In this document: piece by piece, positions 45,358-60,500 of the stretch
Position numbering within the stretch: the stretch's first letter is position 1
Layout of the letters: each line of letters begins with the position of its first letter
NCBI RefSeq assembly: GCF_988242995.1
Contig: NZ_OZ547043.1
Reading direction: 5' to 3' (one strand)
DNA length: 64,000 nt
The notes under the pieces: generated by a model
Seen by the model: only the letters and a program-made list of their open reading frames with translations
The model's database searches: none
Told to the model about the DNA's origin: nothing
Made by a program: the position numbers and the translations under genes

Positions 45358-45398
45358 TTTTAATTCCGATTGAGTTTATTATTAATTAGGTCACTGGC

Positions 45399-46118
45399 TT
45401 ATTGCATGGTTGCCTTAATACGCGGAGTTAATGCACCGTAATCATTGATCGTCTGAAAACTGATATCCCCGGTTGCAGCATGCGGGATATCCACCGATAC
45501 TTCACCTTTTGGCGGCACCATGGTGTTTGGGAGATTGCTATTTCCTGCTTTCATATTTGTTACGGTAATGAAGTAGGGCGTTGGATTAATAAGAGTGAGT
45601 TTGCTGCCGCTGCGACGAAACCGAAGCATTGCAGGCGCTTCTTCAGGTGCCATTGCCAGGTTCGTGGGGCGATAAAACATTTTTATGCGGCTAATAATTG
45701 CCAGCTGTAATGTATTCTCATTCTTCTGATCTTTTTCCATAGCAGGAATAGCTTTAACATTAACCCAGAACAGGCTTTCACGGTCGCCTGGTAACTGATG
45801 ATTAGTGGCGTTGATTATCCGCAGCGTATTCTCTTTTTTACCTTGCATGGAAAAAAGCGGTGGCGTAATGACAAACTGGGTGTCTTTTTGGTCACCCTCA
45901 TTTTCTATCCATGACTGAATGAGATAGACACTGGCAGGATCATTATTCGTGACAGGCAATAAAACCTGTTTCTGGTTTGCCGGATAAATTACCCGCGTCG
46001 CACCCAGTGCGACAGCTGCGTTGGCAACGGTGCTATGGCAAGCAAAGAGCAATAAAAGTAACACTGTCGCCATAAAGGAAATAGAGTAGGGGGTACGCCT
46101 AGTTTGCATCTGATGCAT
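45399..46118 (-). CDS. Periplasmic fimbrial chaperone (PapD/FimC family)
   Basis: 239 aa; signal peptide; chaperone-like N-terminal region and C-terminal domain. Confidence 0.8.
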   Translation of the reverse strand: MHQMQTRRTPYSISFMATVLLLLLFACHSTVANAAVALGATRVIYPANQKQVLLPVTNNDPASVYLIQSWIENEGDQKDTQFVITPPLFSMQGKKENTLRIINATNHQLPGDRESLFWVNVKAIPAMEKDQKNENTLQLAIISRIKMFYRPTNLAMAPEEAPAMLRFRRSGSKLTLINPTPYFITVTNMKAGNSNLPNTMVPPKGEVSVDIPHAATGDISFQTINDYGALTPRIKATMQ

Positions 46119-46471
46119 TCTCCATGTGTTAAGAGGATAAGCGGGGAAACCGTTACATCAGACAATCGGTAAATGTTGCTAATACATTGGCGACTCGCCG
46201 GGTTTCCAGACTTAATGCGTTTGTAATAAATGTTGGTTCTCTTTTAATAGGAAAACATTGCTACAAAGTAAATATTTTAAATAACAGTAAGTTTAACTAC
46301 TGTTGTTTATTGATCGTTTAGATATTATGTGATTTTTTCATGCCGCTCCAAAACACAAACTATTCCTCATTAATAATGAGATGAACATTGGTGAATTGCT
46401 CGGGTGTGCGTAGCCATGCCACACACACCCTGTTTCAATTTCAGATGACGTATAGCCACCTTAAGATTGAA

Positions 46472-47035
46472 TTATAGATATTGAACTTTGAAGGTCGCAT
46501 CAGCGTTTGCAGTACCAGCTACTGACTGCCCGAGAGCAATATAACGAGCCTGGAACGGCAGTATATTCGTGCCATCAATCAAGTCAGTTTTAGCGCTAAA
46601 AGTGGCACCATCAAGTATTAATACCTCACCCGTACGGTCCAAAATTTGAATACCGACATTTTGGGCAGAGCCTGCCGCTGAACTCTGCAGCGCTAACGTA
46701 TCGTCATTACTGGTGACAGTAGTACCCAGGAATGCAACAGCTGCATTACTGGAAACATTGGTATCACAATCATTCAGCTTGATATTGAAGCCAACGGCGG
46801 AGCTGAGGTCACCCGCTTTAGCCAGACGAGAAGAACGGACCTGACCCAGCTCAACCGTTTGGTTCATTGATTCTGAATCAATCGCACAAGCGGCATTTAC
46901 CACTTCACCTTTAAAATGAATAACACCGCCATTAACAGTGGTCGTTACTGATTCATCACCCTCGGCTGCGCTTACCGCAGCAGACGACATCGCCAACACA
47001 GAAACGACAATCATACCGACATGTTTGAGTTTCAT
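46472..47035 (-). CDS. Major fimbrial subunit (type 1 / F9-like pilin)
   Basis: Track ORF 46472-47083 with internal start [23 protein letters not shown]; Cys pair and C-terminal ...TFKVQYL typical of FimA-like pilins. Confidence 0.8.
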
Positions 47036-47468
47036 AATTCTCCAGAATTTATATTTAAGTAGCTGAATAAAGAAAGTTAACAATTAAGTCATTCTGTTAT
47101 TGCTTATAAAACAAGAATCATTCTTGATGGGATATTGCCCTGAGAATATAGTTTCCAGGGTTATTACATTTCACGAAGAACGATAATATCTTTAAATTAC
47201 AAGGACACCTAATCACAACAAGTTTATTGCAGCACTTGTTGTAGAGGGTATTTGCAAAGACATTTTATGTCGCTAAATAACATTACGATTTCATTATGCA
47301 TGTTATTTATAAACAGCGACTAAACAGAATATTATTGCGAACAAGGGAAGTGTCAGGAAAGGTCAAGAGCGGCCAATGGTTTATATGGCTATAAAACATT
47401 AGCTATGGTTAATGTTTGACTGGTGTAACTAACACGGAATTGCTCTAAACAGATAAGTGCAGGGTTTA

Positions 47469-47723
47469 TTAAAGCTGACCGACAGACTTTCTTAACCCGG
47501 TAATATCTCTCTTAGGTGACTCTCCAAACATCCGCGAATATTCCCGACTGAAATGGGATAAGCTTTCGTAACCGACAGCATAGGCTGCAGTGGTGACATC
47601 GTAATGTTCATTCAGCATCAGTCGCCTGGCTTCATTGAGGCGTAGCCATTTCTGATACCGGAGTGGACTCATTCCCGCAAGCTGTCTGAAGTGTTGATGG
47701 AAAGTGGGGGTGTTCATTTGCAC
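47469..47723 (-). pseudogene. yneL: Remnant of an AraC-family regulator (C-terminal HTH only)
   Basis: 84-aa ORF is only the AraC C-terminal HTH domain (LRYQKWLRLNEARRLM...GYESLSHFSREYSRMFGESP); no N-terminal domain ORF upstream. Confidence 0.65.
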
Positions 47724-48003
47724 GCGGTTTGCCAGCCTGACTCTTCAACGCAGGGAAGATGCGGCAAACGGCAAACCTGCATACCAGCCAGCCTATATCC
47801 GGTATGCACAGGCCAATCATGAAAGAGGAGAGGCTTTATGTTCTGGAACCCTGAAGTAATAACGACGACTGGAAAATCGCTTCGCATCACTCAAATTCCA
47901 TTTAACTATTCTGGGTTTGAGGGATATACATAATTGACTTCAGCACCAGAAACAGCATAACAAACTGTTTTAAATGGATATTAATCAAATGGCGATTCAA
48001 ACT

Positions 48004-48038
48004 CACAGTTATGAACTCAGTTTTGGTTCATAACTGTG
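48004..48038. repeat. Perfect 13-bp inverted repeat with 9-bp spacer
   Basis: cacagttatgaac-tcagttttg-gttcataactgtg; a related palindromic 10-mer gttcatgaac lies about 40 nt further on. Confidence 0.8.
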
Positions 48039-48137
48039 TTAAACGCTGTCCATAAATCACTCGATGTTACGCTTATTGGTTCATGAACTGTTCGTTCTAA
48101 TGTTGTGATGTGCGTCAGGTTTTAGTGTTCGGTAATG

Positions 48138-48941
48138 TTACCTTTTACTCGATGATCGATTGTTTAGCACCTCTCCCACAACCGGAGCAGCGGTAAATGC
48201 GTTTGGCCAGCCAGCATAGAAGGCGGCCTGGGTAACGATCTCACCAGCTTCCTCAACAGAAAGTCCATTATCCATTGCTCTGTTAAGGTGATAGCCAATC
48301 TGCGCGCTCTGTCCGGATGCGATTAAGGCGCTGACCGTAATCAGGCTTCTGTCGCGGGGTTTCAGCGCGGGTCTTTGCCAGAGATCCAGGAAGAGTGGAT
48401 CAGCAGTGAATTTAACCAGGCCTGGAGATATTGGGCCAACATTTTTTTCCACTGTTTCTGAACGCTGCTTTTCTGCTTCCTGATTGAGAGGAAGCAGGTC
48501 CGGAGAAGCGTCAGGAAGTGCATCTGCCGTGACGCCACGAGTTTCAAATACTGCTTTGGTCACGCTGACGGCTGACATTGCATTTGGCCAACCTGAGTAG
48601 AACGCCAGATGGGTAATGATTTCTGATAATTCCGCTGGCGTCACGCCGCTATCGAGAGCGACGTCAATATAGTGCTTAAGCTGGGCAGGCTGGTTGCGGG
48701 CAATCAGCATGGCGACGGTCACCACACTACGATCCCTCGGTGAGAGGGCGTCGCGTGTCCACAGATCTTCAGTAATAGCTTCGCGACCAAAGCGCGCGAG
48801 AGCCGGTGAGACGGAACGAATATCAGCTTCCGAAATCGCTGACGGTTCTATTTTCATCATAGCTTTACCTCTTGTTTCCTCAGCATTGGCAAAATCAGAA
48901 ATAACAAGCGACATAGCCGCTGCTGCAAGTACGCTTTTCAT
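48138..48941 (-). CDS. Tandem carboxymuconolactone decarboxylase-like (AhpD-like) protein with predicted signal peptide
   Basis: 267 aa; two repeated modules each with a ...ITHLAFYSGWPNA... type segment (CMD/AhpD fold); N-terminus MKSVLAAAAMSLVISDFANA looks like a Sec signal. Confidence 0.7.
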   Translation of the reverse strand: MKSVLAAAAMSLVISDFANAEETRGKAMMKIEPSAISEADIRSVSPALARFGREAITEDLWTRDALSPRDRSVVTVAMLIARNQPAQLKHYIDVALDSGVTPAELSEIITHLAFYSGWPNAMSAVSVTKAVFETRGVTADALPDASPDLLPLNQEAEKQRSETVEKNVGPISPGLVKFTADPLFLDLWQRPALKPRDRSLITVSALIASGQSAQIGYHLNRAMDNGLSVEEAGEIVTQAAFYAGWPNAFTAAPVVGEVLNNRSSSKR

Positions 48942-48956
48942 GTTAATCCTTACTGG

Positions 48957-49682
48957 TCAACGTTGCTGCTCCTGTTTGATTCCGCCTTTGTTACGAAGAA
49001 ATACCGGTTTTACCGGGATTGCGTCCTTCCTGGCGCTCATATGCGCCGTTTGCCTGAGGTAATCCAGGAAGTGCGGCGTTTGTCGGTGCAGTTGATAATC
49101 CTCCTCACTGGCGTAAATCTCATAGAAATACCAGCGTTTTGGAGTCTCTGAATCTGTACCGGCATACATGGCTAACACGCCTTTCTCTACTTTGAGCGAC
49201 TCGACCATTTCAGGAAGGACGATGTTTCTAAATTCGCTCTGAAATTCAGGCTTTACTTCGACGATCACCAGATTATTGATAGTTCGTTCATTCGGTATGA
49301 TGTGTTTGTCGCCCAGAAACTGTGGCTCCAGGGTAATTTTCTTCTTCCTGTCAATAATGTCAGGTGCACGAGCAGCGAATGCTTTGTATGGGGCGGCATT
49401 GAGATGTTTGCGATAAGCACGCTCATTTTCATAGAGTTCGAACATGAATGCCTTATGTGGATTGTCGCTGTGGTGCAGGGCGTACATCGCCAGCGTACCT
49501 ACTTCATGATCAACCGAAGCGGAAATCGTCTGTCTGGCTACGTCTGCAAAGTCGTTGTCCCGATCGGGTCTGATGCCGAGCTCGAAGATATTCATCTCCG
49601 GCTTATTCGGCGCGTCCGGTTTTGTTGCAAAGACAGGGCTGCTTATTAGCATGCAAATTAAAAGCATAAAAGTCTTTTTCAC
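48957..49682 (-). CDS. Tandem ABM-type (antibiotic biosynthesis monooxygenase-like) protein with predicted signal peptide
   Basis: 241 aa; two halves each with LAMYA...FYEIY / FELYENE... features of the ferredoxin-like ABM fold; N-terminus MKKTFMLLICMLISSPVFA. Confidence 0.6.
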   Translation of the reverse strand: MKKTFMLLICMLISSPVFATKPDAPNKPEMNIFELGIRPDRDNDFADVARQTISASVDHEVGTLAMYALHHSDNPHKAFMFELYENERAYRKHLNAAPYKAFAARAPDIIDRKKKITLEPQFLGDKHIIPNERTINNLVIVEVKPEFQSEFRNIVLPEMVESLKVEKGVLAMYAGTDSETPKRWYFYEIYASEEDYQLHRQTPHFLDYLRQTAHMSARKDAIPVKPVFLRNKGGIKQEQQR

Positions 49683-49797
49683 GATGATCTTTTTACTGAC
49701 ATTACTGTTTAAGACGTTCGATCAACTGGTGCTGGTAGGAACGTAACCGACCGCTACTGGCGCTCTCAAAGACTAGAGGAGGAAAAGTGAATAAGGG

Positions 49798-50817
49798 CTA
49801 TCGCGTCCATACCTGCTTAACATCTTTCGTTTGCGGCGTATTTTGCGCCATGATCCCCGTCAGAACATGCGGCTGGTAGGTTTCTTCCAGAAACTGAATT
49901 TCCTCCGGACTTAGTTGAAGATTTACTGCGTTTACCGCGCCATCGACATGAGCTTTTTTTGTAGCCCCTACGACAGGTGATGTGACTTTTGTCAGCAGCC
50001 AAGCGAGAGATATTTCCGTCATTGACACCAGATGGCGTTCGGCCAGTTCGGCTACACGCTCAATAATGCTGCGATCCTGTTCAGCCGTGCTGTCATATTT
50101 TCCACGCGCATAGTCATCCTCTGTGGCTCGCCGCGTATAGCCTTCTTTACGAGAGAGGCGGCCGCTGGCCAGCGCGCTATAGGGGGTCATTGCGATATTA
50201 TCCTCAGTGCACAGGCCGAAGAGCTCCCGTTCATCTTCGCGCATAATTAGATTGTAGTGGCTCTGTACGGAAACAAAGGGCGTCAGCCCTTCGCGTTCAG
50301 CAAGGGCGTTCGCCTTCGCCAGCTGCCAGGCATAGCAGTTTGAAATACCAACAGCTCGTACTTTGCCAGCAGTAACAGCGGTATGTAACGCTTCAAGCAC
50401 GTCGATAATGGGCGTGTTGTAATCCCAGATGTGGTAGATGTAGAGGTCGATATAGTCCATCCCCAGATTCTTCAGGCTCTGGTCAAGGGATTGAGCGATT
50501 GCCTCTTTTCCGCTGATCCCTCCGGCAATTTGTGCGGGGGTTCGCGGCAGAAACTTGGTGGCCAGGACGATATCATCGCGTTTCGCCATCTCCCGTAATG
50601 CCCGGCCAACGTATCGCTCACTGGAGCCATTCTGGTAGGCTATAGCGGTATCGTAAAAGTTGATGCCCTTTTCAAGGCCATAGCGAATGATGTCGCGGCT
50701 TGCTGTTTCGTCCAGCGTCCAGCTATGCTGACCCGTCGACGGATCGCCAAACCCCATGCATCCCATGCAGATGCGGGAAACAAGTAAGTCACTTTTACCG
50801 AGCCGGGTATACTGCAT
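49798..50817 (-). CDS. Aldo/keto reductase
   Basis: 339 aa; AKR motifs (GINFYDTAIAY, catalytic Tyr/Lys context). Confidence 0.8.
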   Translation of the reverse strand: MQYTRLGKSDLLVSRICMGCMGFGDPSTGQHSWTLDETASRDIIRYGLEKGINFYDTAIAYQNGSSERYVGRALREMAKRDDIVLATKFLPRTPAQIAGGISGKEAIAQSLDQSLKNLGMDYIDLYIYHIWDYNTPIIDVLEALHTAVTAGKVRAVGISNCYAWQLAKANALAEREGLTPFVSVQSHYNLIMREDERELFGLCTEDNIAMTPYSALASGRLSRKEGYTRRATEDDYARGKYDSTAEQDRSIIERVAELAERHLVSMTEISLAWLLTKVTSPVVGATKKAHVDGAVNAVNLQLSPEEIQFLEETYQPHVLTGIMAQNTPQTKDVKQVWTR

Positions 50818-50819
50818 TG

Positions 50820-51392
50820 TTATTCTCCCTCTGGATTATTCACGACGGAATTGAGCAGTTCGACAAGCCTTGAAGCGTGTTCCCGGGCAAGCGTTTTTTG
50901 CTGCGCGATTTTGTCGGCATCCCGGTCGGCATAGCTGATACCGCAGGTATAAACCGGCGCCAGCAGCTCAAGATTGCACAGCCTTGCCGTGGTTTCGAAC
51001 GGAATAAGATACTCTTCAATGGTATTGCCAAAGAAACTGTCGACGGTATAGAGCTCCTCTGGCGCTCCCGTTGTAAAGGAGAGGATCAGCTTTTTACCGC
51101 CCAGTTTCGCCGTTGAGCCATGCGCGAAGCCGTGAACAAAGACCTCGTCCAGCCATTTTTTCATTAATCCTGGCAGCCCATACCAGGAAAAAGGGAACTG
51201 CCAGACAATCACATCGGCCCTGAGCAGGCTTTTCTGCTCCGCCGCGATGTTGAATTTGCCATCCGGATAGAGCCTGTCCAGACGACGAATCTCAACATCG
51301 GGAAGGGCGGTCTCCACTTCATCAAGAATAGTGGCATTGGCGACGGAATGGGTAAGCTCAGGATGACCTGAAATAACAAGGATATTTTTCAT
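50820..51392 (-). CDS. Flavodoxin-like NAD(P)H:quinone oxidoreductase family protein
   Basis: 190 aa; MKNILVISGHPE... N-terminus and WQFPFSWYGLPGLMKKWLDEV typical of NAD(P)H dehydrogenase (quinone) family; 3-nt gap to the downstream AKR gene. Confidence 0.75.
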   Translation of the reverse strand: MKNILVISGHPELTHSVANATILDEVETALPDVEIRRLDRLYPDGKFNIAAEQKSLLRADVIVWQFPFSWYGLPGLMKKWLDEVFVHGFAHGSTAKLGGKKLILSFTTGAPEELYTVDSFFGNTIEEYLIPFETTARLCNLELLAPVYTCGISYADRDADKIAQQKTLAREHASRLVELLNSVVNNPEGE

Positions 51393-51542
51393 TTCAATCA
51401 GTTAAACATCTTTGGTGAATATTAAATCCAGTATAGAGTGACAACATTATTTTTTTAGAGCAGTAAAGGCTCATTCACTTTTAGGCAAAAACTAATAATT
51501 GTCGGCTGATCACAATGTGCTCAGTCATCATGAAACGGTGAA

Positions 51543-52220
51543 CTAAACCGTGATGCCCAGTAAACGTTCTGCATTGCGAAACGCGATGGCCTCTTTTTCA
51601 GCCTTGTTGACGGGCAGACTGTCTATAAAGGTTTTTACACCGTCCAGGGGTCTGATAGGGATAACCGACGGAGAACAGGATCCTTTCAGCACCCATTAAC
51701 GCGTAGATAAACTGGAAGTGCGGCAGTGTTAGCATATGACGGGGTAACGTAAACGTGTTCCTGGAAGGTTCTCGTTAGCGTGCGTGACAGACCCGTTGCA
51801 GCCAGTGCTAGGCTGTCATCAAGACGCTGGAGCCAGAAGGGTAACATCTCCCCCCAGTGGCCACTGATTACCTGCAGGTTGGGATATTTATCAAATGCGC
51901 CCGATAACATCAGCCGCAACAAATGGATCCCCGCTTCGTGATGCCAGCCCCAGGCAAACATAGAAAGCCTGGCGTTGACCTCTGCGCTGAAGCCCGTGAA
52001 GTAGGCCTGCTGTACGCTTTTAAGCGGTAACCCGGGATGAAGATAGAGTGGCACATTCAGTTTATTAAAGCGGGAAAGCAGGGAGTCGGTCAGGATTATG
52101 ACCATCAGCGACGGTTTTCCCCCTGTCGCCAAGGAAAGGTGCCTGCTCAAGCGCAACAGGCATACACGCGCGCCCTAACTCGCTGTCGAGATAATTTTCT
52201 TCGAGGCAAATGATTTTCAT
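51543..52220 (-). pseudogene. Frameshifted amidohydrolase-2 (TIM-barrel metal-dependent hydrolase) gene
   Basis: Coding potential is split over three frames: MKIICLEENYLDSELG... (from ATG at 52220), a 156-aa middle ORF (51686-52156) containing ISGHWGEMLPFW, and a C-terminal piece ...AEKEAIAFRNAERLLGITV* ending at 51543. Confidence 0.55.
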
Positions 52221-52322
52221 ATTCTCACCATTCATACAAAGCAGTAAAAGTGATACAGATTAGAATCACCCGGAACAGCCCGTTCGTGTGTGTCATTCAT
52301 GACAGTCTGTTCCGGACGGGCT

Positions 52323-53270
52323 TTACACCATCGGTTTTTCCCAGGCGCCTCGTGTATCCACTCTGGTCTCTGCGGCGAGTTGTTCCAGCAGGATGATTTC
52401 CTCATCGCGTAACTGGATGTCTGAAGCGCAGGCGGCGTCCAGAACGTGATGGACTTTAGTCGCACCAACGAGGGGAAGGGTACCTTTCACAATAGCCCAT
52501 GCGATGGATATCTGTGCCACGCTGGCATTCCTTTCGGCTCCCATTTTTTTCATGGCGGCGGTTAGTCTTTCTATCTGCGGCAGTACGGCGTTATAACTTT
52601 CGGCCCGGCCACTCCCGGCAGGCATGGGATGATTTGAATCATAACGACCACTGAGCGCGCCTTGCTCCAGGACCATGTAAGCAAAGAACGTGATGTTATT
52701 TTGTCGGCAATAATCAAGGATCCCGGCCTCTTCAGAAGCGCGATAGAGCAGGCTGTAGTGATTTTGTACTGCACTGAGGGAATAACCGGAAGCGTTAAGG
52801 ATTTCATTGGCGCGTCTGATTTGTGCCAGATTGTGGTTGGAAACACCTACGCGTTTTACCTTACCGCTTTGTAAAAGTGGGATCAGTCCTGGCGTCCATT
52901 TTTCGACGTCGAGGGGATTATGGATCCAGTAGATATCAATCGCGTCCACGCCCAGGCGCCCAAGGCTGGCCTCAAGCATATCGCTGACAGGCTGCGCAGA
53001 CTGCTTGTCCGCAATCTGCGGCGTGAATTTGGTGGATAAAATTATGTTCTCGCGGGGAAACTGACGGACTAATGCTCCCAGCGCAGTCTCGGAACTCCCC
53101 ATACCATATACTGCTGCGGTATCCCAGAGATTGAGGCCCTTACTCATGGCCGCAGTGAACACTTCTGCCATCTGAGTATCAGAAAGATGATTACCAAAGA
53201 CGGTGTCGCCGCCGGCAAAGCCTGTGCCCCAGGACCATGTACCTAGTGCGACTGGAGGTAGTGTTTTCAT
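52323..53270 (-). CDS. Aldo/keto reductase
   Basis: 315 aa; AKR motifs (LWDTAAVYG, IDIYWIHNP). Confidence 0.8.
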   Translation of the reverse strand: MKTLPPVALGTWSWGTGFAGGDTVFGNHLSDTQMAEVFTAAMSKGLNLWDTAAVYGMGSSETALGALVRQFPRENIILSTKFTPQIADKQSAQPVSDMLEASLGRLGVDAIDIYWIHNPLDVEKWTPGLIPLLQSGKVKRVGVSNHNLAQIRRANEILNASGYSLSAVQNHYSLLYRASEEAGILDYCRQNNITFFAYMVLEQGALSGRYDSNHPMPAGSGRAESYNAVLPQIERLTAAMKKMGAERNASVAQISIAWAIVKGTLPLVGATKVHHVLDAACASDIQLRDEEIILLEQLAAETRVDTRGAWEKPMV

Positions 53271-53343
53271 ATTCAGCTCCTGAAAAAAGGCCGGATCGTG
53301 GCTGACTTAAACCGGCCAAGTAAGGTGAGTAACGATGAATTAA

Positions 53344-54033
53344 TTAAGCTGTCCGGCGGAGTGCATTTAACAGCGCCACACCAACCCCATGTGCTGAAGC
53401 GGGATTCTGCCCCGTGATAAGGCGATCGTCGGTAACCACGTTTTCAGACCAGTTTGGAGCTTCATGATAAAGCGCACCATGCTCGCGAAGTGCGGTTTCA
53501 AGCAGGAAGGGAACCACATCTGTTGTGTGAACTTCTTCCTCTTCCTTGTTGGTAAAGGCCGCCACATTTTTCCCTTTTATCAGGTATTCGCCGCTACTGA
53601 GTTTTGCGTCAACCAATGCCGCAGGCCCGTGGCAGACGGCTGAGACAATCCCATCACTTTCATACACTTCGCGGATAATACGCTGGGCATCCTGATTATC
53701 ACGGAAATCCCACATGGTCCCATGACCACCTGCAAAGAAAACTGCGCTGTAATCGGCACCTTTCAGCTCGGATAACGCAGGTGTTGTTGCCAGGCGCTGC
53801 TGAAAATCGGTTTCGTTCCAGTACCAGGCGTTAACAGGGTCGCTGAGGTCAAATCCATCCACCGGTGGCTGCCCCCCGCGAATACTGGCTATTGTTGTTT
53901 TTATTCCGGCATCTTCCAGTACTTTCAGCGGATGAGTCAGCTCGGCCAGGAAAAAACCGGTTGGTACACCGGATGCGCCTTTAATCGGATGGCTGGAAAC
54001 GACACATAGCACTGGTTTATATGCAGGTTTCAT
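53344..54033 (-). CDS. DJ-1/PfpI (class I glutamine amidotransferase-like) family protein
   Basis: Roughly 229 aa; nucleophile-elbow-like AVCHGP; start uncertain (track ORF extends to 54045). Confidence 0.75.
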   Translation of the reverse strand: MKPAYKPVLCVVSSHPIKGASGVPTGFFLAELTHPLKVLEDAGIKTTIASIRGGQPPVDGFDLSDPVNAWYWNETDFQQRLATTPALSELKGADYSAVFFAGGHGTMWDFRDNQDAQRIIREVYESDGIVSAVCHGPAALVDAKLSSGEYLIKGKNVAAFTNKEEEEVHTTDVVPFLLETALREHGALYHEAPNWSENVVTDDRLITGQNPASAHGVGVALLNALRRTA

Positions 54034-54041
54034 ATCGGTCC

Positions 54042-54353
54042 TCACTCTTTATTTTTAAATTCATCGGCGAAGAGATTTTCCCAGTTAATAAAGGAGCCAA
54101 GCGGTATACACTCGAAGCTTAGTAAGCCTGCTTTTGCCAACGGGAATTCGGCCATAACGTTCATCGCTTCATCGACAGAGTCACATTCAAGAAAAATAGC
54201 GACGCCAGGTCTGTCCTGACGGAAGTAGATGTCGCGGATGAAGCCTGATTTATACAATCCCCAGGCGTGCAGCGCTTCAGCGTTGAGGTGCGGAGCATAT
54301 TTCTCCAGCGATGCTCCAGGGGCAGGGATATCCAGACATAAAATTCGCATCAT
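54042..54353 (-). CDS. Small alpha+beta-barrel protein, possibly muconolactone-isomerase-like
   Basis: 103-aa ORF first in the operon; weak pattern similarity to muconolactone isomerase and other dimeric alpha/beta-barrel proteins; assignment tentative. Confidence 0.45.
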   Translation of the reverse strand: MMRILCLDIPAPGASLEKYAPHLNAEALHAWGLYKSGFIRDIYFRQDRPGVAIFLECDSVDEAMNVMAEFPLAKAGLLSFECIPLGSFINWENLFADEFKNKE

Positions 54354-54489
54354 AGTCTCCTGAACTCAGGTCGTTGTAGAAAGAGACTAAAGTATAAGAG
54401 GCGTATTTCAGGAAGATTAGAGGGTCATTGACTTAAGCATTTTTAGACTGTACTTAATAATCAGGCGAGAATTGCTTTAGGAAAACATT

Positions 54490-55389
54490 ATGAATAACGC
54501 TCTTTATAACCAGATTCGCATCTTCCAGAGCATTGCGCGGGAGGGCAATATTTCGGCAGCCGCAAGGAAACTGGAAATTACGCCTCCCTCCGTCAGCAAT
54601 GCACTAAAGCTGCTGGAAGAGTATATCGGCCATCCGCTTTTTGTGCGTACGACCCGCCGTATAGAGCTGACGGAAACCGGTCAATTATTGCTGGAACAGA
54701 CCGCTGCGGCGGTGGAGTCGCTGGAAAACTCACTTGAAAGCATTCGCGACCAGCATCAGGAGCCCTCTGGGATGGTGCGAATTACGCTCTCGCGTTTTGC
54801 CTACCTGTTAATTCTTAAGCCTGCGATGGCAGAATTCTGTCAGCAATATCCGGGTATACAGTTAGAAATTTCGGTCTACGACGGTACCGTGAATATCATC
54901 AAAGAGCGTTTTGATCTGGGGATCCGTTTTGGCGATATTCTTGAGGGAGGGGTGGTGGCCCGACCGTTAATGAAACCGTTTCGTGAAGGATTATATGCAT
55001 CCTCAGCGTATCTCTCCCGACATGGAACGCCTGAAGTGCCGGCAGATCTCTGTCATCACCAGCTGATTGGTTACCGTTTTATCACCAACAACCGCATCCT
55101 TCCGCTGCTCCTGAACGATCGCGGTGAGCAGTTGACCGTTGAGATGCCGGGGCAGTTAATCAGCAACGATATTGACGTTATGGCAGACGGGATCCGTAAC
55201 GGGCTGGGAATTGGGCGCTTGTTTGAGCCTGTCTGGCAGTTACAGCCGGACAGGGAGCGCTTTATTCCGGTGATGGAGAGCTACTGGAAAACCTACCCGC
55301 CAGTGTATCTCTATTACCCCAAAAACGCGGGTAAAACGAAAAGAGTGAAGGCCCTGATTGATTTTCTGATATCCACTACGGGGCGATAA
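54490..55389 (+). CDS. LysR-family transcriptional regulator
   Basis: 299 aa; N-terminal HTH (ISAAARKLEITPPSVSNALKLLEE) and LysR substrate-binding domain; divergent from the redox operon. Confidence 0.85.
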   Translation: MNNALYNQIRIFQSIAREGNISAAARKLEITPPSVSNALKLLEEYIGHPLFVRTTRRIELTETGQLLLEQTAAAVESLENSLESIRDQHQEPSGMVRITLSRFAYLLILKPAMAEFCQQYPGIQLEISVYDGTVNIIKERFDLGIRFGDILEGGVVARPLMKPFREGLYASSAYLSRHGTPEVPADLCHHQLIGYRFITNNRILPLLLNDRGEQLTVEMPGQLISNDIDVMADGIRNGLGIGRLFEPVWQLQPDRERFIPVMESYWKTYPPVYLYYPKNAGKTKRVKALIDFLISTTGR

Positions 55390-55787
55390 AGACGATAACG
55401 CCTCGTTCAGTATGGAGATGCATCGAATGGCATTGTGAGTTTTTTTTCACAGATGGGCGTAATCGTCAGTGGATTTTACATACGAGGATAGCGCCCACAT
55501 ACTGACATCATTAATTAACGTTGGGTGAGGTTTACCGGGGGGGAGGGGAACGCGAACCAGGAGATGGAGGTGGCCAATCTGGTACGAACCGCCGCGTAGC
55601 TTGCACGGCAAGAGCTGCTGACTGATTCATCAGTTAAGCTACTGAAAGAGCGGAACACATGAACTTAAGAACAAACCACCACATTTAACATAATATACAT
55701 TATGCGCACCAGCATAAACCAAGGAAGAATCCAGTCGTTGGCGGCCATAATTGTCCTGCTCATTAACAACGACCAAAACCCCATATC

Positions 55788-57110
55788 TTACTTAATACCG
55801 TATTCTCGGCTTAACCGGCCGTGCAACCTCAACACATTGGTTTCAACTGCCGTCACCACGTTCTCCGGAAAATCTGTCGGTAACGAAGTCTTCACGTTAT
55901 CCAGTGCTGCCGGAATCATTCTGGCAAAGTAATTCAGGATTTCATGCATCTGCACTTCCGGGAATCTCAGCACCTTTGCTGTCGCCAGAAAATGTCGCGG
56001 ATAAATTTTATCGATTGCCGTTTTTTTGCCTTTGGATGCGTTAAGCCCCATTGCCAGTTTGAGATCGCTGATGTGTATTCCTGCGCCACCCAATACCGGA
56101 AATGCTGAAATGATGTCGTAAAATGGCGTGAGTCGATAACTGCCGCCAGCCTGAATAAATACGGAGAAGTTTTTTGCATGGCCATCCGTTGCGCCAATCA
56201 ACCACTGGAACACCTGAAACTTCATAAAATCATAGCGATCTTTCAGCGCCTCGCTGGACCCCATCAAAAAAGCCATGATCCGCGCGATGCCTGGGCCTCC
56301 ATCTGATTCATATTTCACCGATGAAGGTAAACCGAATGTCTGACACATATCCTCCTGTGGCAAGCGAAGTAAAACCGTTCGCTCAGCATTCCAACGCCTG
56401 TCAAAACGTTCGACCGCTAACGCGCGCACATTTCCCGCTTTAATGATTTCTGCGTCCGGCACATTCAACCCAAGTTCTTTCGCCAGCAGCAGACAGTAAT
56501 ACTCATTATCAACGCTTTGGCTGAGATCGAGCGTCGCATTGGGCTGCCTGATTTCGCCAATCGGTAATTTAATGATGTGCGTCGTCGGCGTTATTCCTTT
56601 CGGAATGCACCAGTCATTGCCTATTCTGAGCAGCGCTGTCTTCTCCTGCGCGCCAGCAACCGAGATGCGAAAGTCATTTTCTTCTCTAATCATGCCCAGA
56701 GGGATATCTGCTTTATAAGCCGTTAATACTTCTTCAAGCCTGGCTTCAGTGAGCTGTTCCCATGCCATTATCGGGCGCGTTATGGTTTCATTTTCGGGTA
56801 ATAACGTTACGGCACCAACGCTATCTCGCCCTATTTCTGACAATAAATCAAACGGTTGTCTGGATTTAGCATGATAACGTTTAACGATCCGGTCACGTAC
56901 AATCGGGCTATCGGGTAGCAGGTTATCGAAGAAGTTAAATACAGCATCAGAGGTGATATTCCCCCTCTGCAATGGCAGCGAAAGTGATAACGGTCTGGCA
57001 TAACGGTTGGCTAACCACTCCGGTGCATACTTAAAGGTGTGCGCGCCATTGGCTAACTTCGTTAACTCGCCTACCCGCTGGTTGTTCATCCAAGTGACAA
57101 GTTTAGGCAT
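55788..57110 (-). CDS. hipA: Serine/threonine kinase toxin HipA
   Basis: Track ORF 55788-57167 with start MPKLVTWMNNQRVGELTKLANGAHTFKYAPEWLA (440 aa); start overlaps the hipB stop by 1 nt. Confidence 0.93.
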   Translation of the reverse strand: MPKLVTWMNNQRVGELTKLANGAHTFKYAPEWLANRYARPLSLSLPLQRGNITSDAVFNFFDNLLPDSPIVRDRIVKRYHAKSRQPFDLLSEIGRDSVGAVTLLPENETITRPIMAWEQLTEARLEEVLTAYKADIPLGMIREENDFRISVAGAQEKTALLRIGNDWCIPKGITPTTHIIKLPIGEIRQPNATLDLSQSVDNEYYCLLLAKELGLNVPDAEIIKAGNVRALAVERFDRRWNAERTVLLRLPQEDMCQTFGLPSSVKYESDGGPGIARIMAFLMGSSEALKDRYDFMKFQVFQWLIGATDGHAKNFSVFIQAGGSYRLTPFYDIISAFPVLGGAGIHISDLKLAMGLNASKGKKTAIDKIYPRHFLATAKVLRFPEVQMHEILNYFARMIPAALDNVKTSLPTDFPENVVTAVETNVLRLHGRLSREYGIK

Positions 57111-57586: not shown

Positions 57587-60500
57587 TTACCAGCTATATT
57601 TCACACCCAGCATGCCCTGAGTATCGCTATAGCCTTTATCACCTAGTTGCACACCGACATTCCCCCACAGGCTAAGGTTGTTATTTACTTTCGCCTCAAC
57701 CCCGGTACGTACTTCACCGAGATTACGCGCACCATCACGGCTTACGGTTTGACCATTCATCTTCACGGCGTAGACTTTGCTGTTGTTGATCCAGTTCGCT
57801 TCAATGTAAGGCTGGAACTCACGCTGTTTACCATTGTCACGCTGGTGATGACTGTTCAGGTAGGTTTTCACCCCAAGTCGCGTTTGCACGTTTCCGTCGC
57901 CTTCCGTTTCAATGCGTGTTCCGTCTTTCCGGGTATGGTCAGAATCTTTCACACCCATCCAGGTGATTTGTACCTGTGGCTGGACGTACCAGGTATTCAG
58001 CGTCCCTTCGCTGCCGCTAAAAGTTCCCGCTTCAAAGGTATACCCACCCTCAACAGAGGCCGTCACACCGCGAGAATCATAGTCGTCAGCAGAACGGTTA
58101 TCGGAACTGACGCTGTTATCAAACCAGTTATACAGCGCCCAGCTGTCAACATAAGCGCCGGTCTTATTCGCATCGTTCTGATACCAGGTCGCGTACAGTC
58201 CTGCGCTGTAACCGCTGATGCGCCCATCCGATTTATAACCCACACGATTACTCTGAGTATTACTGTGCTGATTGGCGTAGCCTGCCATCACGCCAAGATG
58301 CCAGCGATCCTGCGCGTTGCTACTCCACTGCGCCAAATCGCCTCCTAGCTGCAATACATAGCGGTTAGCCTGAGTATTTAGCTGCCCGTCACCGGTCCTG
58401 AAACGTTCGTGCCCCCCGACATGACGCATCCACATACTGCTTGCCGAACCCTGAGAATGCAGTGAATCTGTATACTGCGGCTCACCCAGACGGTCGTGTA
58501 AGCGATGGCTAAACAGCGAGTTGGCTGCGGCAATGTTGCTGATATAGCTTCCGGCCTCCGGGCGATAAACTGATGGGCCTTCCGGATCCACAACAGGGGG
58601 ATTATTGATGGGATCGGGTGTATCCGCTGGCGTTACGCCGTCCCATTTACTGGTCAGATACCAGTTTTTCTCGTCATTCCCCTTCCCTTTAGCCAGCGTG
58701 TAGACGTAAGCCCCAGCTTCGACAGTTCCGGTGGTCAGCGCGAAGTTACCTGCAGAATTACCGCCAACCTCAATGAGTTCAATACCGTTGACCGTTTGTG
58801 CACCGACGCCGCCAATGTTATCAACCCGAACGCGAGTGTTCCCTTGGGTATCGCCTTTCACGTTCATTTTATCCGTGGGTGAATTATCGCCGCCCAGCGT
58901 CGCGTTGAACGTCATCAGGCCATTGTTTCCGGTATAGTTGCCGTTAACGGTCAGTACATTCCCCGGTTTTCCTCCTTCACTATTCATTTGAACCGTGCCG
59001 CCATTCTCCAGGTTACCGCCGACAGTGGTTTTAGCGACACGCAGTGTCCCCCCTGGCATAACGTTCACATCACCTGCAGTAGTGACATTTCCCGACATCA
59101 CACCGCTGTTATGGATATTAATGTGCTGACTTGCCATATTAATGGCAGAGTCGGAACCGAAAGCAATTTCACCACCCACGATATCCGTCGTACCCTGATA
59201 CGCCGCGGAATCTTTGTTAAGAGTCAGGATCCCGGTCCCCAGTTTTGTCACATCACCGCTACCGCTGATACTGTGCGTCATCGCCCAGCTACGCTCAGTG
59301 GAGATGGTGAGCAGGCCATTATTGATAACGGAAGCATCACCCAGGTTTTTCTGCTCGTTGACGCTGAGCGCGCTGCCTGTATCAATGTTGAATTGCCCCA
59401 CAAAGCGGCTATTATCGCCATCCAGCTCTACGTCTGTCCTGGCGGTTGCGCTCACGATACCCTTCCCGCTTATGCTATTACGCAGTTCGCCGGTCACATT
59501 TTTTAGCGTTAACAGACCGTCATTGGCAATATTTCCTCTACCTAACCCCTGCGTATTATCGAGGCTGACTTCCGCATTTGGGCTAATGCTGGTTAACGCA
59601 TTGTAGCGTGCATTAAGCCCCTCGATAGCCAGCGTTCCCCCTGTAACATTCAGGTTTCCGCCACCTGTCAGTTCGCCCTGACTGATCCCACCTTTATTCA
59701 CCGTCAGCGACCCCTCTTTAAACAAAACAGTCGAACCCATCAGCCCGGTGAATGTCTCTACCGTCTGGGCCGATCCATTAAGATCGACGATGGCCGCGTT
59801 GCTGATGTTCAGTTCCCGAGTATTGCCCAGCGCGCCATCCGCATCGGTACGTAATGTCCCCATCTGAACGTAGGTTGCCCCCTGATAGTCGTTCTGACCG
59901 TTGGAAAGCGAAACCTGTCGCACCGTATTGATTGCCAGATCCCCTTCACCACCGATTTTTGCCGACATATCGGCCGTTGCGCCATAGGCTCCGCCATGTT
60001 CGGCTAACGTCAGCTTTTGCCCACCATGGATGTTCAGCGCTTTCAGCCCATAGTTAACGTACAAACCATCACCTGGTGCGGTCGTGAGGCGGAATCCATA
60101 ATCACCCTCGGCGACCACTGTCCCGTTTTGTGCAATATGTAACGTTTTGTCCGCTTCCACCTCGTCGCCCTGTAAATCACGTAACGTTAATGAGCCACCC
60201 GACCCAATAACCGTTTGCGCCTTCACCAGTTGAACGCCGACATGACTATCATCGTGTTCCAGCAAATTGAGCGTCGTCAGAGGGTTATTCGCCATGGGAT
60301 CATTCCACGGTTTAGGCACGTCGATAAGCACGTCGCCCGTCCCGTTTACCTGATAGTTACGGCCTTTCCAGGTGTAGTCACCCGCGCCGACAACCAGCGT
60401 ATCGACGCTGATATATCCCTCCGCGAGCGTCGCAGCAGGAATATCCGTATCGAAAATGAGCGTACCGCCATTCATGGCCAGTCCACCAATGGATTGCTCT

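Follow-up and report, generated by a model that had tools for sequence, protein, structure and literature searches.

The 7.8-kb island lying between yneL and hipA in Escherichia coli belongs, as judged by comparison of gene neighbourhoods, to a widespread and so far unstudied type of bacterial gene cluster that has a small protein, here called g1, as its signature. The cluster may well be an inducible system that protects the cell from quinones or phenolic electrophiles, a reading to which we assign a probability of roughly 0.5. All positions given below refer to the window, which is the whole 64-kb stretch of DNA that was analysed.

Extent and gene content of the island

The accessory island spans approximately positions 47907–55689. 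An initial annotation had proposed that this segment is accessory DNA, and comparison of the yneL–hipA interval agrees with this proposal. The segment is absent from K-12, where yneL and hipA are 317 bp apart and the empty site carries one single (G)ATTTAAC, while it is present in near-complete form in 428 of 5,426 complete E. coli genomes (~8%; identity at least 98.4%). Partial copies or IS insertions of the island are found in about 92 E. coli genomes. In other strains a 2.77-kb segment made up of an ISNCY remnant and SIR2 is inserted at 55711/55713, just past the right repeat. The island is read as a horizontally acquired segment carrying one LysR-type regulator and a divergent oxidoreductase operon.

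The listing of open reading frames for 48138–55389 bears out the earlier description of eight co-directional genes, all on the minus strand, next to a divergent LysR gene; seven of the eight are intact and one is an amidohydrolase pseudogene. Pfam profile searches return the families originally assigned for all genes except g1, which has no Pfam match. All island products carry generic names in the databases, and a search for gene names and literature on the cluster found none, in keeping with the suggestion that the system is uncharacterised. The features of the island are as follows.

47899..47906, no strand: left copy of the 8-bp direct repeat CATTTAAC; island edge, where K-12 homology resumes or ends
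48004..48039, minus: strong hairpin, possible operon terminator, about 100 nt past the g8 stop
48138..48941, minus: g8, tandem CMD protein, predicted exported (Pfam CMD twice, 2e-16 and 8e-16)
48957..49652/49682, minus: g7, tandem ABM protein, predicted exported (Pfam ABM twice, 2e-12 and 5e-10)
49798..50817, minus: g6, aldo/keto reductase (AKR), 339 aa (Pfam Aldo_ket_red, 1e-68)
50820..51392, minus: g5, Flavodoxin_2 NAD(P)H-dependent (quinone) oxidoreductase, 190 aa (Flavodoxin_2, 4e-38)
~51549..52220, minus: amidohydrolase pseudogene, LigW-like, Amidohydro_2 (tblastn, partial Pfam match)
52323..53270, minus: g3, aldo/keto reductase, 315 aa (Pfam Aldo_ket_red, 5e-55)
53344..54033 or 54045 (GTG), minus: g2, DJ-1/PfpI protein, Hsp31-class, 229 aa from ATG 54033 (DJ-1_PfpI, 7e-14)
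54042..54353, minus: g1, Pfam-less signature protein, 103 aa (AlphaFold fold)
54354..54489, no strand: divergent control region (dyad, -10 hexamer, ribosome-binding site)
54490..55389, plus: LysR-type regulator, 299 aa, divergent from the operon (Pfam HTH_1, 2e-21; LysR_substrate, 1e-25)
55682..55689, no strand: right copy of CATTTAAC; island edge

The genes were initially taken to form one operon on the basis of tight spacing, with gaps of 3 and 12 nt. The measured tight gaps are instead 2 nt (g5–g6), 15 nt (g7–g8) and, between g1 and g2, either 8 nt or an overlap of 4 nt; the remaining gaps measure 73, ~100, ~156 and 115–145 nt. A single operon is plausible from this layout, which has only one conserved promoter and LysR box; no terminator-like site was found between the operon genes, although four gaps exceed 70 nt. 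The 86-nt stretch that bears the hairpin (47975–48060) folds with a free energy of -25 kcal/mol (z-score -4.9), a value that none of 200 shuffled versions equals. The hairpin is possibly the operon terminator, a role put no higher because its stem is AT-rich and its U tract weak.

The g1 cluster type

Gene neighbourhoods were surveyed in 80 species loci of g1, and the inner zone of each locus was compared with its outer flanks. In this cluster type g1 is the first or second gene after a divergent LysR gene; in 78 of the 80 loci the LysR gene lies upstream of g1 at a distance of no more than 3.2 kb. DJ-1 genes near g1 number 54 in the inner zone and 0 in the outer flanks. Amidohydro_2 genes are enriched 31-fold beside g1 and are part of the operon in 39/80 loci, while quinone-reductase-like genes are enriched 7.6-fold and ABM genes 6.8-fold; enrichment is weak or absent for AKR (1.9-fold) and CMD (0.8-fold) genes. 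The quinone-reductase-like genes represent three unrelated NAD(P)H classes (Flavodoxin_2, WrbA-like and PIG3/zeta-crystallin-like), and 70 of the 80 loci possess at least one of them.

Gene content differs widely among species, with g1 and LysR as the constant elements. The variable partners comprise quinone reductases, Hsp31-class DJ-1 proteins, a LigW-like decarboxylase, ABM proteins, AKRs and exported CMD/DUF1330 proteins, and the minimal units consist of LysR, a WrbA-like reductase and g1 only. Dienelactone-hydrolase-type genes are present in 12 of the loci. No dioxygenase, hydroxylase, cycloisomerase, enol-lactonase, CoA-transferase, thiolase or consistent transporter is recurrent in the 80 loci. 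The hosts are mainly soil- and plant-associated bacteria.

The signature protein g1

Searches by sequence in Pfam, NCBIfam and the PDB gave no match to g1. The AlphaFold model (pLDDT 91) is a ferredoxin-like alpha+beta-barrel subunit, and the initial label of g1 as a small alpha+beta-barrel protein is therefore right. Top Foldseek matches of the model are ClcF/MIase, TftG and HI0828 (TM 0.67–0.69); the model thus places g1 in a Pfam-less family whose fold is YCII/muconolactone-isomerase-like. The mechanism of TftG is of the His-Asp type. TftG acts on hydroxyhydroquinone and is among the closest structural neighbours of g1. The g1 family has 20 invariant residues across 48 homologues, and no histidine is invariant in this set; consequently, a TftG-like His-Asp mechanism is unlikely. 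The dN/dS value of g1 relative to Rahnella is 0.03.

Cytoplasmic enzymes

For every enzyme of the island, the nearest named NCBIfam equivalog gives a score under that model's curated cut-off. The closest solved structures to g2 are 4p5p, 1u9c and yeast Hsp31/YDR533c, and the residues E35, C138, H139 and E168/169 show conservation of 95% or more over 53 loci; the NCBIfam match to HchA reaches 67 bits against a cut-off of 365. The aldo/keto reductase g3 is 80% identical to a syntenic Serratia gene, with all NCBIfam equivalogs under cut-off, while the catalytic tetrad of g6 (D56, Y61, K88 and H129) is conserved in 44 homologues. For both AKRs the best NCBIfam match is YdjG, a methylglyoxal reductase (113–124 bits, cut-off 550 bits). 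The flavoprotein g5 resembles KefF (148 bits, below the 210-bit cut-off), and its relatives in the PDB are general stress protein 14, KefF, NQO1/NQO2 and MdaB.

The amidohydrolase had been described as decayed, and alignment to the intact 344-aa Serratia orthologue leads to the same conclusion, as residues 46–163 are missing and two frameshifts are present. With the Serratia protein as tblastn query, residues 1–45, 164–280, 273–310 and 307–343 are recovered in three frames, and comparison with Rahnella gives an exact 354-bp deletion. The remnant retains a partial match to Pfam Amidohydro_2 (1e-7, model positions 128–192 of 289). The intact orthologue has matches (4e-45 to 4e-31) to the decarboxylases of 5-carboxyvanillate, gamma-resorcylate, 2,3-dihydroxybenzoate and salicylate, and by this sequence relationship the remnant is classed as a former LigW-like non-oxidative decarboxylase, now a pseudogene.

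Predicted periplasmic proteins

The ABM protein g7 begins with the signal peptide MKKTFMLLICMLISSPVFA, followed by T, and signal peptides are kept in its orthologues from 9 genera. Among solved structures it is closest to 3mcs and 3f44, two tandem ABM 'putative monooxygenases' that begin after the signal. The signal peptide of g8 ends in VISDFANA, followed by EE, and the protein contains no cysteine. It scores 113 bits with the PcaC model, below the 156-bit cut-off, and is closest to 4g9q, a tandem CMD structure from structural genomics. Homologues of g8 across alpha-, beta- and gamma-proteobacteria have signal peptides or lipoboxes. As signal peptides are conserved across classes in the ABM, CMD and DUF1330 partners, the system has a predicted periplasmic arm. 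The signal peptides of g7 and g8 were not part of the initial description.

Regulator and control region

The best NCBIfam match of the LysR protein is YafC (163 bits, below the 470-bit cut-off). The protein is 85–94% identical to the g1-adjoining LysR of 10 other enterobacterial genera, but g1-adjoining LysR proteins in other bacterial classes are only ~30% identical to it, and a common inducer is therefore not guaranteed. The control region contains a TTA-N9-TAA (T-N11-A) dyad at 54442–54458, a TATACT -10 hexamer on the minus strand at 54391–54396, ~54 nt downstream of the dyad centre, and an AGGAG ribosome-binding site just before g1. The promoter and LysR-box blocks are conserved when the window is aligned with 13 enterobacterial loci of other genera, and the LysR box is found once in the window. 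Regulatory sites of LysR-type regulators (LTTRs) carry T-N11-A near -65. The spacing of the dyad matches this classical arrangement, and it is regarded as a putative LysR site.

Reduction of the E. coli copy

An intact 10-gene form of the cluster is found in Rahnella and on a 214-kb Enterobacter mori plasmid; nucleotide identity of the island is 92% to Rahnella rivi and 91% to the plasmid. By this comparison the E. coli copy derives from the 10-gene form by reduction, and a 952-bp deletion took its DUF1330 gene and a second flavoprotein gene. Values of dN/dS for island genes relative to Rahnella are 0.03–0.28. Non-synonymous and synonymous codon differences between E. coli alleles number 18 vs 10 and 19 vs 13, which are small counts, and in ETEC4075 the LysR and CMD genes are frameshifted. 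Selection on the island looks relaxed within E. coli. The cluster type, the periplasmic arm and the erosion of the E. coli copy were all missed in the initial annotation.

Proposed function and alternatives

Flavin-dependent quinone reductases protect against quinone stress. In E. coli, MdaB and YgiN were reportedly proposed by Adams and Jia in 2005 to form a quinone redox cycle. In the proposed mechanism, the LysR protein would bind the dyad ~66 nt upstream of the start site, sense a quinone, hydroquinone or related phenolic electrophile and activate the operon from the TATACT promoter. The Flavodoxin_2 enzyme g5 would then carry out two-electron reduction of the quinone in the cytoplasm, and g1 may act on the resulting (hydroxy)hydroquinone or a tautomer, as TftG does, or alternatively serve as partner of the reductase, in a pairing like that of MdaB with the alpha+beta-barrel protein YgiN. 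Carbonyl and dicarbonyl by-products would be cleared by DJ-1 and the two AKRs, while the exported tandem-ABM and tandem-CMD proteins would act on the same class of compounds in the periplasm. Quinone or electrophile detoxification was one of two functions suggested initially, and it gains strength from the three quinone-oxidoreductase-like classes beside g1 across species; counted against it are the catalytic promiscuity of all families in the cluster, the weak or absent enrichment of AKR and CMD genes near g1, the sub-cut-off NCBIfam scores, the missing invariant histidine of g1, the divergence of LysR between bacterial classes and the erosion of the E. coli copy. The other suggestion, the tail end of an aromatic ring-cleavage pathway, is disfavoured because the CMD protein carries an export signal and falls short of the PcaC cut-off, and because no dioxygenase, cycloisomerase, enol-lactonase or CoA-transferase recurs in the 80 loci.

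It is unlikely, though worth weighing, that the cluster serves the peripheral catabolism or funnelling of one particular hydroxylated aromatic acid, a module in which the LigW-like decarboxylase yields a di- or trihydroxybenzene that is passed to the reductases, g1, ABM and CMD. Amidohydro_2 is among the most specific partners of g1, the closest characterised relatives of the amidohydrolase are phenolic-acid decarboxylases, and the MIase-like fold of g1, the PcaC-like CMD and the dienelactone-hydrolase-type genes recall the lactone chemistry of aromatic pathways; the predominance of soil- and plant-associated hosts also suits such a role. However, the 80 loci show no recurrent ring-cleavage dioxygenase, hydroxylase, cycloisomerase, CoA-transferase or thiolase and no consistent transporter, CMD and ABM are exported whereas the beta-ketoadipate enzymes are cytoplasmic, variable content around a constant g1/LysR pair is more usual for a stress module than for a fixed pathway, and minimal loci hold just a reductase and g1. 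On this reading the E. coli copy, whose decarboxylase is dead, could no longer run the aromatic-acid pathway.

There is a small chance that the E. coli island is a functionless relic of a cluster transferred from a plant or soil bacterium and kept by drift only. The pseudogene, the 952-bp deletion, the partial or IS-interrupted copies, the ETEC4075 frameshifts and the excess of non-synonymous differences all point this way. Against this, the codon counts are small, the regulator and seven structural genes keep their full length in the window, with alignments to their orthologues that run from end to end, and the island is retained near-complete in the 428 genomes. This explanation bears on fitness value and not on biochemical function, and is compatible with quinone defence.

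The chance is slimmer still that reactive carbonyls (methylglyoxal, glyoxal or other aldehydes) are the target instead of quinones, with DJ-1 in the role of glyoxalase III and the AKRs reducing methylglyoxal or aldehydes. DJ-1 is the tightest partner of g1, the relatives of g2 include glyoxalase III enzymes, its own Glu/Cys/His residues are conserved, and YdjG heads the matches of both AKRs; yet the YdjG and HchA scores fall far under cut-off, and the three quinone-reductase-like classes, the decarboxylase and the exported ABM/CMD/DUF1330 proteins would be left unexplained.

Finally, it is very improbable that g1 is a true superoxide dismutase and the cluster a superoxide-removal oxidative-stress operon: the SOD models (Fe/Mn, Cu/Zn or Ni) of Pfam, NCBIfam and the PDB show no resemblance to g1, the invariant residues of g1 include no conserved His/Cys metal ligands, and a search for a supporting paper found none, so that the name appears to be without support even though NCBI and UniProt give it to hundreds of g1-family members and the link to quinone reductases would suit defence against semiquinone-derived superoxide.

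Gene Content of the Island

The accessory segment between the yneL remnant and hipA carries eight co-directional minus-strand reading frames (48138-54353) and a divergent 299-aa ORF, as first described from the sequence and confirmed by ORF listing. The families originally assigned to these genes also hold in Pfam profile searches, in which the proteins were concatenated with linkers; g1 alone is without a Pfam match. The genes are listed below, with Pfam values in brackets.

54490-55389, plus strand: LysR regulator; HTH_1, PF00126 (2e-21), and LysR_substrate, PF03466 (1e-25)
54042-54353, minus strand: g1, 103 aa
53344-54045, minus strand: g2; DJ-1_PfpI, PF01965 (7e-14)
52323-53270, minus strand: g3, an aldo/keto reductase (AKR); Aldo_ket_red, PF00248 (5e-55)
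51549-52220, minus strand: amidohydrolase pseudogene; its 156-aa fragment at 51686-52156 is a partial Amidohydro_2 match (model positions 128-192 of 289)
50820-51392, minus strand: g5; Flavodoxin_2, PF02525 (4e-38)
49798-50817, minus strand: g6, a second AKR; Aldo_ket_red, PF00248 (1e-68)
48957-49682, minus strand: g7; two ABM domains
48138-48941, minus strand: g8; two CMD domains

Several of these assignments are accompanied by conserved side chains. The Cys-His nucleophile elbow of g2 (C138-H139) is at least 95% conserved, as are E35 and E168/169, and the nearest solved structures are Hsp31-class glyoxalase III proteins; by domain and conserved residues g2 belongs to the Hsp31 class of DJ-1/PfpI proteins. 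The catalytic tetrad of g6 (D56, Y61, K88, H129) is conserved, and the motifs DTAAVY, STKF, and IHNP can be read directly from g3, so that on domain and Asp-Tyr-Lys-His tetrad both belong to the aldo/keto reductases. The relatives of g5 include NQO1/NQO2, MdaB, and KefF, and its domain fits the Flavodoxin_2 family of NAD(P)H:quinone oxidoreductases, an activity that is predicted for it. It falls short of the KefF model (NF002044; 148 bits against a cut-off of 210), and no kefC-like gene was found within the island.

The suspected decay of the amidohydrolase was borne out by tblastn, as the intact 344-aa orthologue from Serratia inhibens matches the window in three different frames (residues 1-45, 164-280, 273-310, and 307-343). 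The missing 118 codons correspond to an exact 354-bp deletion relative to Rahnella rivi.

Boundaries, Origin, and Decay

K-12 does pass straight from yneL to hipA, as first described: in MG1655 yneL (1590334-1590536) and hipA (from 1590854) lie 317 bp apart, identifying the island as accessory DNA. The K-12 alignment to the window stops at 47893 and resumes at 55683, and these limits together with the positions of a repeated octamer give an island of approximately 7.78 kb.

47899-47906: left copy of the octamer CATTTAAC, direct repeat at the island edge
55682-55689: right copy of CATTTAAC, direct repeat at the island edge

The empty site of K-12 has a single (G)ATTTAAC copy of the octamer. This junction fits either an insertion with a short duplication or a deletion between short repeats. 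Inspection of the island ends for an integrase, a tRNA, terminal inverted repeats, direct repeats, or other signs of a mobile element found the 8-bp direct repeat alone.

Comparison of the yneL-hipA interval across 5,426 complete E. coli genomes yielded 520 with some match, of which 428 have near-complete copies (at least 80% of 47900-55600 aligned) at 98.4-99.4% identity, corresponding to carriage by about 8%. The remaining genomes (approximately 92) have partial copies only, some of them broken by IS21/IS100. RefSeq product names are generic and the protein clusters lack gene names; literature searches on the island, its accessions, and its family combinations turned up nothing, in agreement with the initial view of the cluster as uncharacterized.

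Close copies of the island are found in other genera. In nucleotide sequence the segment 48169-55377 shares 92% identity with Rahnella rivi and 91% with a plasmid of 214 kb from a plant-derived Enterobacter mori, and a cluster adjoining smpB in S. inhibens shares 80-87% protein identity. In Rahnella and on the E. mori plasmid the operon comprises 10 genes: g1, DJ-1, AKR, intact Amidohydro_2, Flavodoxin_2, AKR, DUF1330 (exported), a further Flavodoxin_2, tandem ABM, and tandem CMD. The S. inhibens cluster, a variant related to it, also has an intact Amidohydro_2 gene. Relative to Rahnella, E. coli has lost, besides the 354 bp within the amidohydrolase, 952 bp holding the DUF1330 and second flavoprotein genes. 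Because the near-full-length E. coli copies align in one piece and at equal length, identical deletions are implied in all of them. Judged on its empty site, its patchy spread, and the close copies in other genera and on a plasmid, the island is horizontally acquired.

All intact genes are under purifying selection relative to Rahnella, which was chosen because synonymous sites are saturated against Serratia; dN/dS ranges from 0.03 (g1) to 0.28 (ABM). Among E. coli alleles, codon differences are more often non-synonymous than synonymous (18 versus 10 and 19 versus 13, both small numbers). In strain ETEC4075 (locus L091; 1739-2529, 8064-8961, and 9359-9625), frameshifts disrupt the CMD and LysR genes, and an IS66-family element adjoins a truncated hipA. 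The deletions, partial copies, frameshifts, and allele differences give the E. coli island the look of a dispensable element undergoing slow erosion.

The LysR Regulator and Its Control Region

The divergent gene has the domains of a LysR-type regulator and is assigned to that class by them; it falls below the YafC equivalog NF040888 (162.8 bits against a cut-off of 470). The 136-bp divergent region is strongly conserved in 13 enterobacterial loci of other genera, as are two elements within it. These are listed with a hairpin that follows the last gene.

54442-54458: dyad TTAAGTACAGTCTAA, TTA-N9-TAA, containing T-N11-A
54391-54396, minus strand: TATACT hexamer, approximately 54 nt downstream of the dyad center
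48004-48039, minus strand: hairpin with a perfect 13-bp AT-rich stem, approximately 100 nt after the g8 stop

The hexamer precedes the g1 start codon by approximately 38 nt, and the ribosome-binding site of g1 is AGGAG. In the classical LysR layout the regulatory site lies near -65 and the activation site covers a poor -35. The geometry of dyad and hexamer is of this kind, and the dyad is the predicted binding site of the regulator; a search of the 64-kb window for a second LysR box found none. The idea that one orthologous LysR accompanies g1 in all loci was rejected, as the alpha- and beta-proteobacterial regulators share only about 30% identity with those of enterobacteria.

The tight spacing originally cited in favor of one operon is present in places: g1 and g2 are separated by 8 nt (or overlap by 4 nt), g5 and g6 by 2 nt, and g7 and g8 by 15 nt. 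In places the spacing is tighter than first given, and elsewhere it is looser, with 73 nt between g2 and g3, approximately 100 and 156 nt around the pseudogene, and 115-145 nt between g6 and g7. Consensus scans revealed no promoter or terminator in the gaps, such sites being no more frequent than in shuffled sequence. A single LysR-activated transcript would be the simplest reading; four of the gaps are 73 nt or longer. An 86-nt stretch containing the hairpin folds at -25 kcal/mol (z = -4.9), and the hairpin sits in island flank DNA that is absent from Rahnella and Enterobacter. An Rfam scan of 47000-56000 matched no RNA element.

The g1 Family

Pfam and NCBIfam contain no match to g1, a member of a strongly conserved family. 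Homologues with 60-70% identity extend from Enterobacterales through Duganella and Trinickia to Archangium (Myxococcota) and an acidobacterial MAG, and a profile search of 1.84 billion representatives returned 1,387 clusters at E ≤ 0.001 (476 at E ≤ 1e-10). Twenty positions are invariant among 48 family sequences, including D8, P10, G37, R40, Y43, R45, D47, R48, G50, V51, E56, W91, and E92. Some homologues (P0240-P0245, P0254, and P0256) reach 200-310 aa and match over two stretches, representing tandem domain duplications or fusions. Two database entries look like enterobacterial contamination: a protein of the fungus Astraeus odoratus (P0004) that is 98% identical to g1, and a 1,136-bp MAG contig labeled 'Collinsella sp.' (L020, 1-1136) that is 99.6% identical to 54101-55236 of the window.

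The AlphaFold model of g1 (pLDDT 91) is a ferredoxin-like subunit with the order beta-alpha-beta-beta-alpha-beta. Its top Foldseek matches in the PDB are ClcF (5-chloromuconolactone dehalogenase/isomerase), TftG (hydroxyhydroquinone dehydrochlorinase of the YCII family), and the YciI-like HI0828, with TM scores of 0.67-0.69 and 14-20% identity; ABM structures rank lower (TM 0.45-0.5). Weak profile signals run the same way, with 36/48 members matching YCII and 18/48 matching MIase at E ≤ 0.1. Membership in the named families was nevertheless rejected. For YCII (PF03795), the window protein scores E = 0.34, only 2/48 homologues reach E ≤ 0.001, and TftG is reached at E = 0.1 in a profile comparison with the PDB; for muconolactone isomerase (PF02426), 1/48 homologues reaches E ≤ 0.001 and the likeness is structural only (14-16% identity); for ABM (PF03992) there is no profile match. 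Since the YCII and MIase profiles match weakly though the folds are related, g1 forms a family of its own inside the dimeric alpha+beta-barrel superfamily.

Proteins with Predicted Export

The tandem ABM and CMD proteins begin with signal peptides, MKKTFMLLICMLISSPVFA|TKP in g7 and MKSVLAAAAMSLVISDFANA|EET in g8, and the closest solved structures to g7 (3mcs and 3f44) align from residue 28-30 onward. Signal peptides or lipoboxes also start ABM, tandem-CMD, and DUF1330 orthologues and homologues in Serratia, Pantoea, Rhizobium, Caulobacter, Pseudomonas, and Burkholderia, and no signal-type N-termini were found in g1, the DJ-1 protein, the AKRs, or the flavoprotein. We infer that the system spans two compartments, with g7 and g8 exported and the remaining proteins cytoplasmic. 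The RefSeq product name of g7 is 'putative quinol monooxygenase'. The 267-aa g8 is cysteine-free and has no CxxC active-site motif, and because it lacks cysteine, AhpD-type alkylhydroperoxidase chemistry is ruled out.

Recurrence of the Cluster Type

To place the island in context, one genome per GTDB species was scanned, yielding 80 loci with a g1 homologue; ORFs were called and families assigned by phmmer, the window and Pfam-annotated loci supplying the seeds. In 78 of the 80, a LysR gene is found in divergent orientation no more than 3.2 kb upstream of g1. As a within-locus control, matches in an inner zone (-2.5 to +5 kb) were compared with those in the outer flanks.

Gene families near g1: loci with a member within 8 kb; inner versus outer matches
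DJ-1: 53/80 loci; 54 versus 0 matches
Amidohydro_2: 41/80 loci; 31-fold
ABM: 36/80 loci; 6.8-fold
AKR: 39/80 loci; 1.9-fold
CMD: 30/80 loci; 0.8-fold
Flavodoxin-like FMN/quinone reductase: 61/80 loci
MDR-type dehydrogenase: 36/80 loci
Quinone-reductase-like: 7.6-fold
Dienelactone-hydrolase-type: 8.7-fold
LysR: 3.4-fold

Flavoproteins in other bacterial classes are WrbA-like and the MDR proteins resemble the 'quinone oxidoreductases' PIG3 and zeta-crystallin (best NCBIfam matches, below cut-offs), so that three unrelated quinone-reductase-like classes recur near g1, in 70/80 loci. The smallest loci contain nothing beyond LysR, a WrbA-like gene, and g1. SDR genes recur in 30 loci; neither a ring-cleavage dioxygenase nor a consistent transporter is recurrent in the 80. 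In rhizobia, a second module adjoins that of g1, made up of DUF2255, AKR, an exported tandem CMD, and its own LysR (2-5 kb upstream of g1); DUF2255 modules occur in 15 loci, with rhizobial examples in L023, L026, L032-L034, L040, L051, L055, L078, and L087.

Proposed Function and Comparison with Known Systems

The recurrent two-electron quinone reductases, the decarboxylase-like enzyme, the cofactor-free barrels, and the AKR and DJ-1 proteins, which would clear carbonyls, together suggest that the cluster is an inducible system that deals with quinones, hydroquinones, and related phenolic electrophiles, a reading to which we assign a probability of about 0.5. A LysR-controlled operon of detoxifying oxidoreductases on an accessory island is a familiar kind of system. 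Apparently undescribed until now are the signature family of g1, its almost universal linkage to LysR, the DJ-1 and decarboxylase genes that recur beside it, and the arm of exported ABM, CMD, and DUF1330 proteins.

In K-12, the quinone reductase MdaB is paired with YgiN, a small alpha+beta-barrel protein, under the control of MarA/SoxS. The island parallels this arrangement in placing a flavodoxin-like quinone-reductase-type gene (g5) with small dimeric alpha+beta-barrel proteins (g1 and g7). However, g5 is KefF/NQO1-like rather than an MdaB orthologue (MdaB E ~1e-15), g1 is not an ABM protein as is the 'quinol monooxygenase' YgiN, g7 is a tandem ABM protein with a signal peptide, and the island has a dedicated divergent LysR and many more genes. 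Flavin quinone reductases are known to guard against quinone stress (PMC8765430), and mdaB and ygiN are found together, for example, in PMC2653508.

The best structural neighbors of g1, TftG and ClcF/CatC, are likewise small alpha+beta barrels, and are cofactor-free enzymes acting on hydroxyquinol- or lactone-type aromatic intermediates. TftG is a 5-chlorohydroxyhydroquinone dehydrochlorinase. However, g1 shares only 14-20% identity with these neighbors, is below Pfam thresholds, and has its own invariant set, without an invariant His; chloroaromatic and beta-ketoadipate pathway genes are absent from its neighborhood. The regulons of Bacillus subtilis MhqR/YodB/CatR, Pseudomonas aeruginosa MexT (LysR), and E. 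coli YhaJ (LysR) respond to quinones and electrophiles, each placing a dedicated regulator over mixed quinone reductases, other oxidoreductases, and DJ-1- or dioxygenase-type enzymes. The island differs from them in gene set and has no efflux pump, and the best NCBIfam match of its regulator is YafC, far below cut-off; to our knowledge, neither a g1 signature gene nor an exported ABM/CMD/DUF1330 arm has been described for any of them.

The initial annotation had also offered the tail of an aromatic ring-cleavage pathway. The beta-ketoadipate tail (CatC, PcaC, enol-lactonase) does share the MIase-like fold of g1, the PcaC-like CMD domains of g8, and, in some related loci, dienelactone-hydrolase-type genes. 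However, g8 is tandem, exported, and cysteine-free, and although it matches the PcaC model TIGR02425 at E = 1e-32, its 112.6 bits over two domains fall short of the 155.7-bit cut-off; this, its signal peptide, and the lack of pca genes nearby led to rejection of a PcaC identity. No dioxygenase, cycloisomerase, enol-lactonase, CoA-transferase, or thiolase is present in the island or among the recurrent neighbors in the 80 loci, and a ring-cleavage role is consequently disfavored.

A pathway dedicated to funneling hydroxybenzoates is an unlikely alternative. The intact amidohydrolase orthologue matches the non-oxidative Amidohydro_2 decarboxylases (LigW and the gamma-resorcylate, 2,3-dihydroxybenzoate, and salicylate enzymes) at 4e-45 to 4e-31 over nearly its full length, but the window copy is a pseudogene and the closest structure to the orthologue, 3nur (4e-72), is an uncharacterized structural-genomics protein. 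That the island is a functionless relic in E. coli, which would be compatible with the other readings, we regard as distinctly unlikely. Defense against dicarbonyls by the DJ-1 and AKR proteins is quite improbable: g2 scores 66.6 bits against a cut-off of 365 for the HchA glyoxalase III equivalog (NF003168), and g3 and g6 score 113 and 124 bits against 550 for the YdjG methylglyoxal reductase equivalog (NF049922).

Finally, much of the g1 family, hundreds of entries in NCBI and UniProt, bears the name 'superoxide dismutase', yet a true dismutase is very improbable, as g1 matches no Fe/Mn, Cu/Zn, or Ni enzyme in Pfam, NCBIfam, or the PDB and has no invariant His or Cys to serve as metal ligand. 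A literature search found no paper backing the name, which is probably a propagated misannotation; for database hygiene, these hundreds of entries stand without support found.

If the quinone and phenolic-electrophile reading is correct, the island opens a way into a never-studied stress module that soil, plant-associated, and enteric Proteobacteria commonly carry. The module would pair a dedicated LysR sensor with a strongly conserved small protein and divide its labor in an unusual way, with the reductases in the cytoplasm and the cofactor-free alpha+beta-barrel and CMD proteins exported. Tentatively, and with the odds against it, we propose that the g1 family is a new cofactor-free enzyme or obligate quinone-reductase partner acting on quinols, semiquinones, or their superoxide, and that it marks an unrecognized, widespread LysR-controlled quinone-stress regulon with one arm of reductive enzymes in the cytoplasm and another of exported ABM, CMD, and DUF1330 proteins; the E. 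coli island would then be an offshoot of it in decay. Interest attaches more to the entire cluster type than to the reduced E. coli copy; for E. coli the significance of an apparently eroding element is modest, and in carrier lineages it may aid tolerance of plant or dietary quinones and phenolics.

Variation in the Surrounding DNA

The yneL flanks are known to differ between strains (PMC9308461). The yneL remnant in the window (47469-47723) retains only a C-terminal AraC-type HTH (84-aa ORF). K-12 and the window diverge over 47679-47803 and realign at 88% identity over 47804-47893, up to the island boundary; because of this divergence and realignment, the yneL region has been rearranged more than once. 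Some E. coli strains have an extra 2.77 kb between the island and hipA, at window position 55711/55713 (L001, 11312-14079), which is absent from the window and consists of an ISNCY transposase remnant and a 450-aa SIR2 protein matching the PADLOC candidate defense family PDC-S25 (E = 2e-82). Upstream, 3.3 kb of a ydeQRST-type fimbrial operon (43932-47214), holding part of the usher, the chaperone, and a fimA-like major subunit, is absent from K-12, and the operon is complete in the window. Downstream of hipBA, 57587-63007 encodes an intact 1806-aa autotransporter ORF (RefSeq ECSE_1600 family) whose K-12 counterpart, yneO, is a pseudogene.
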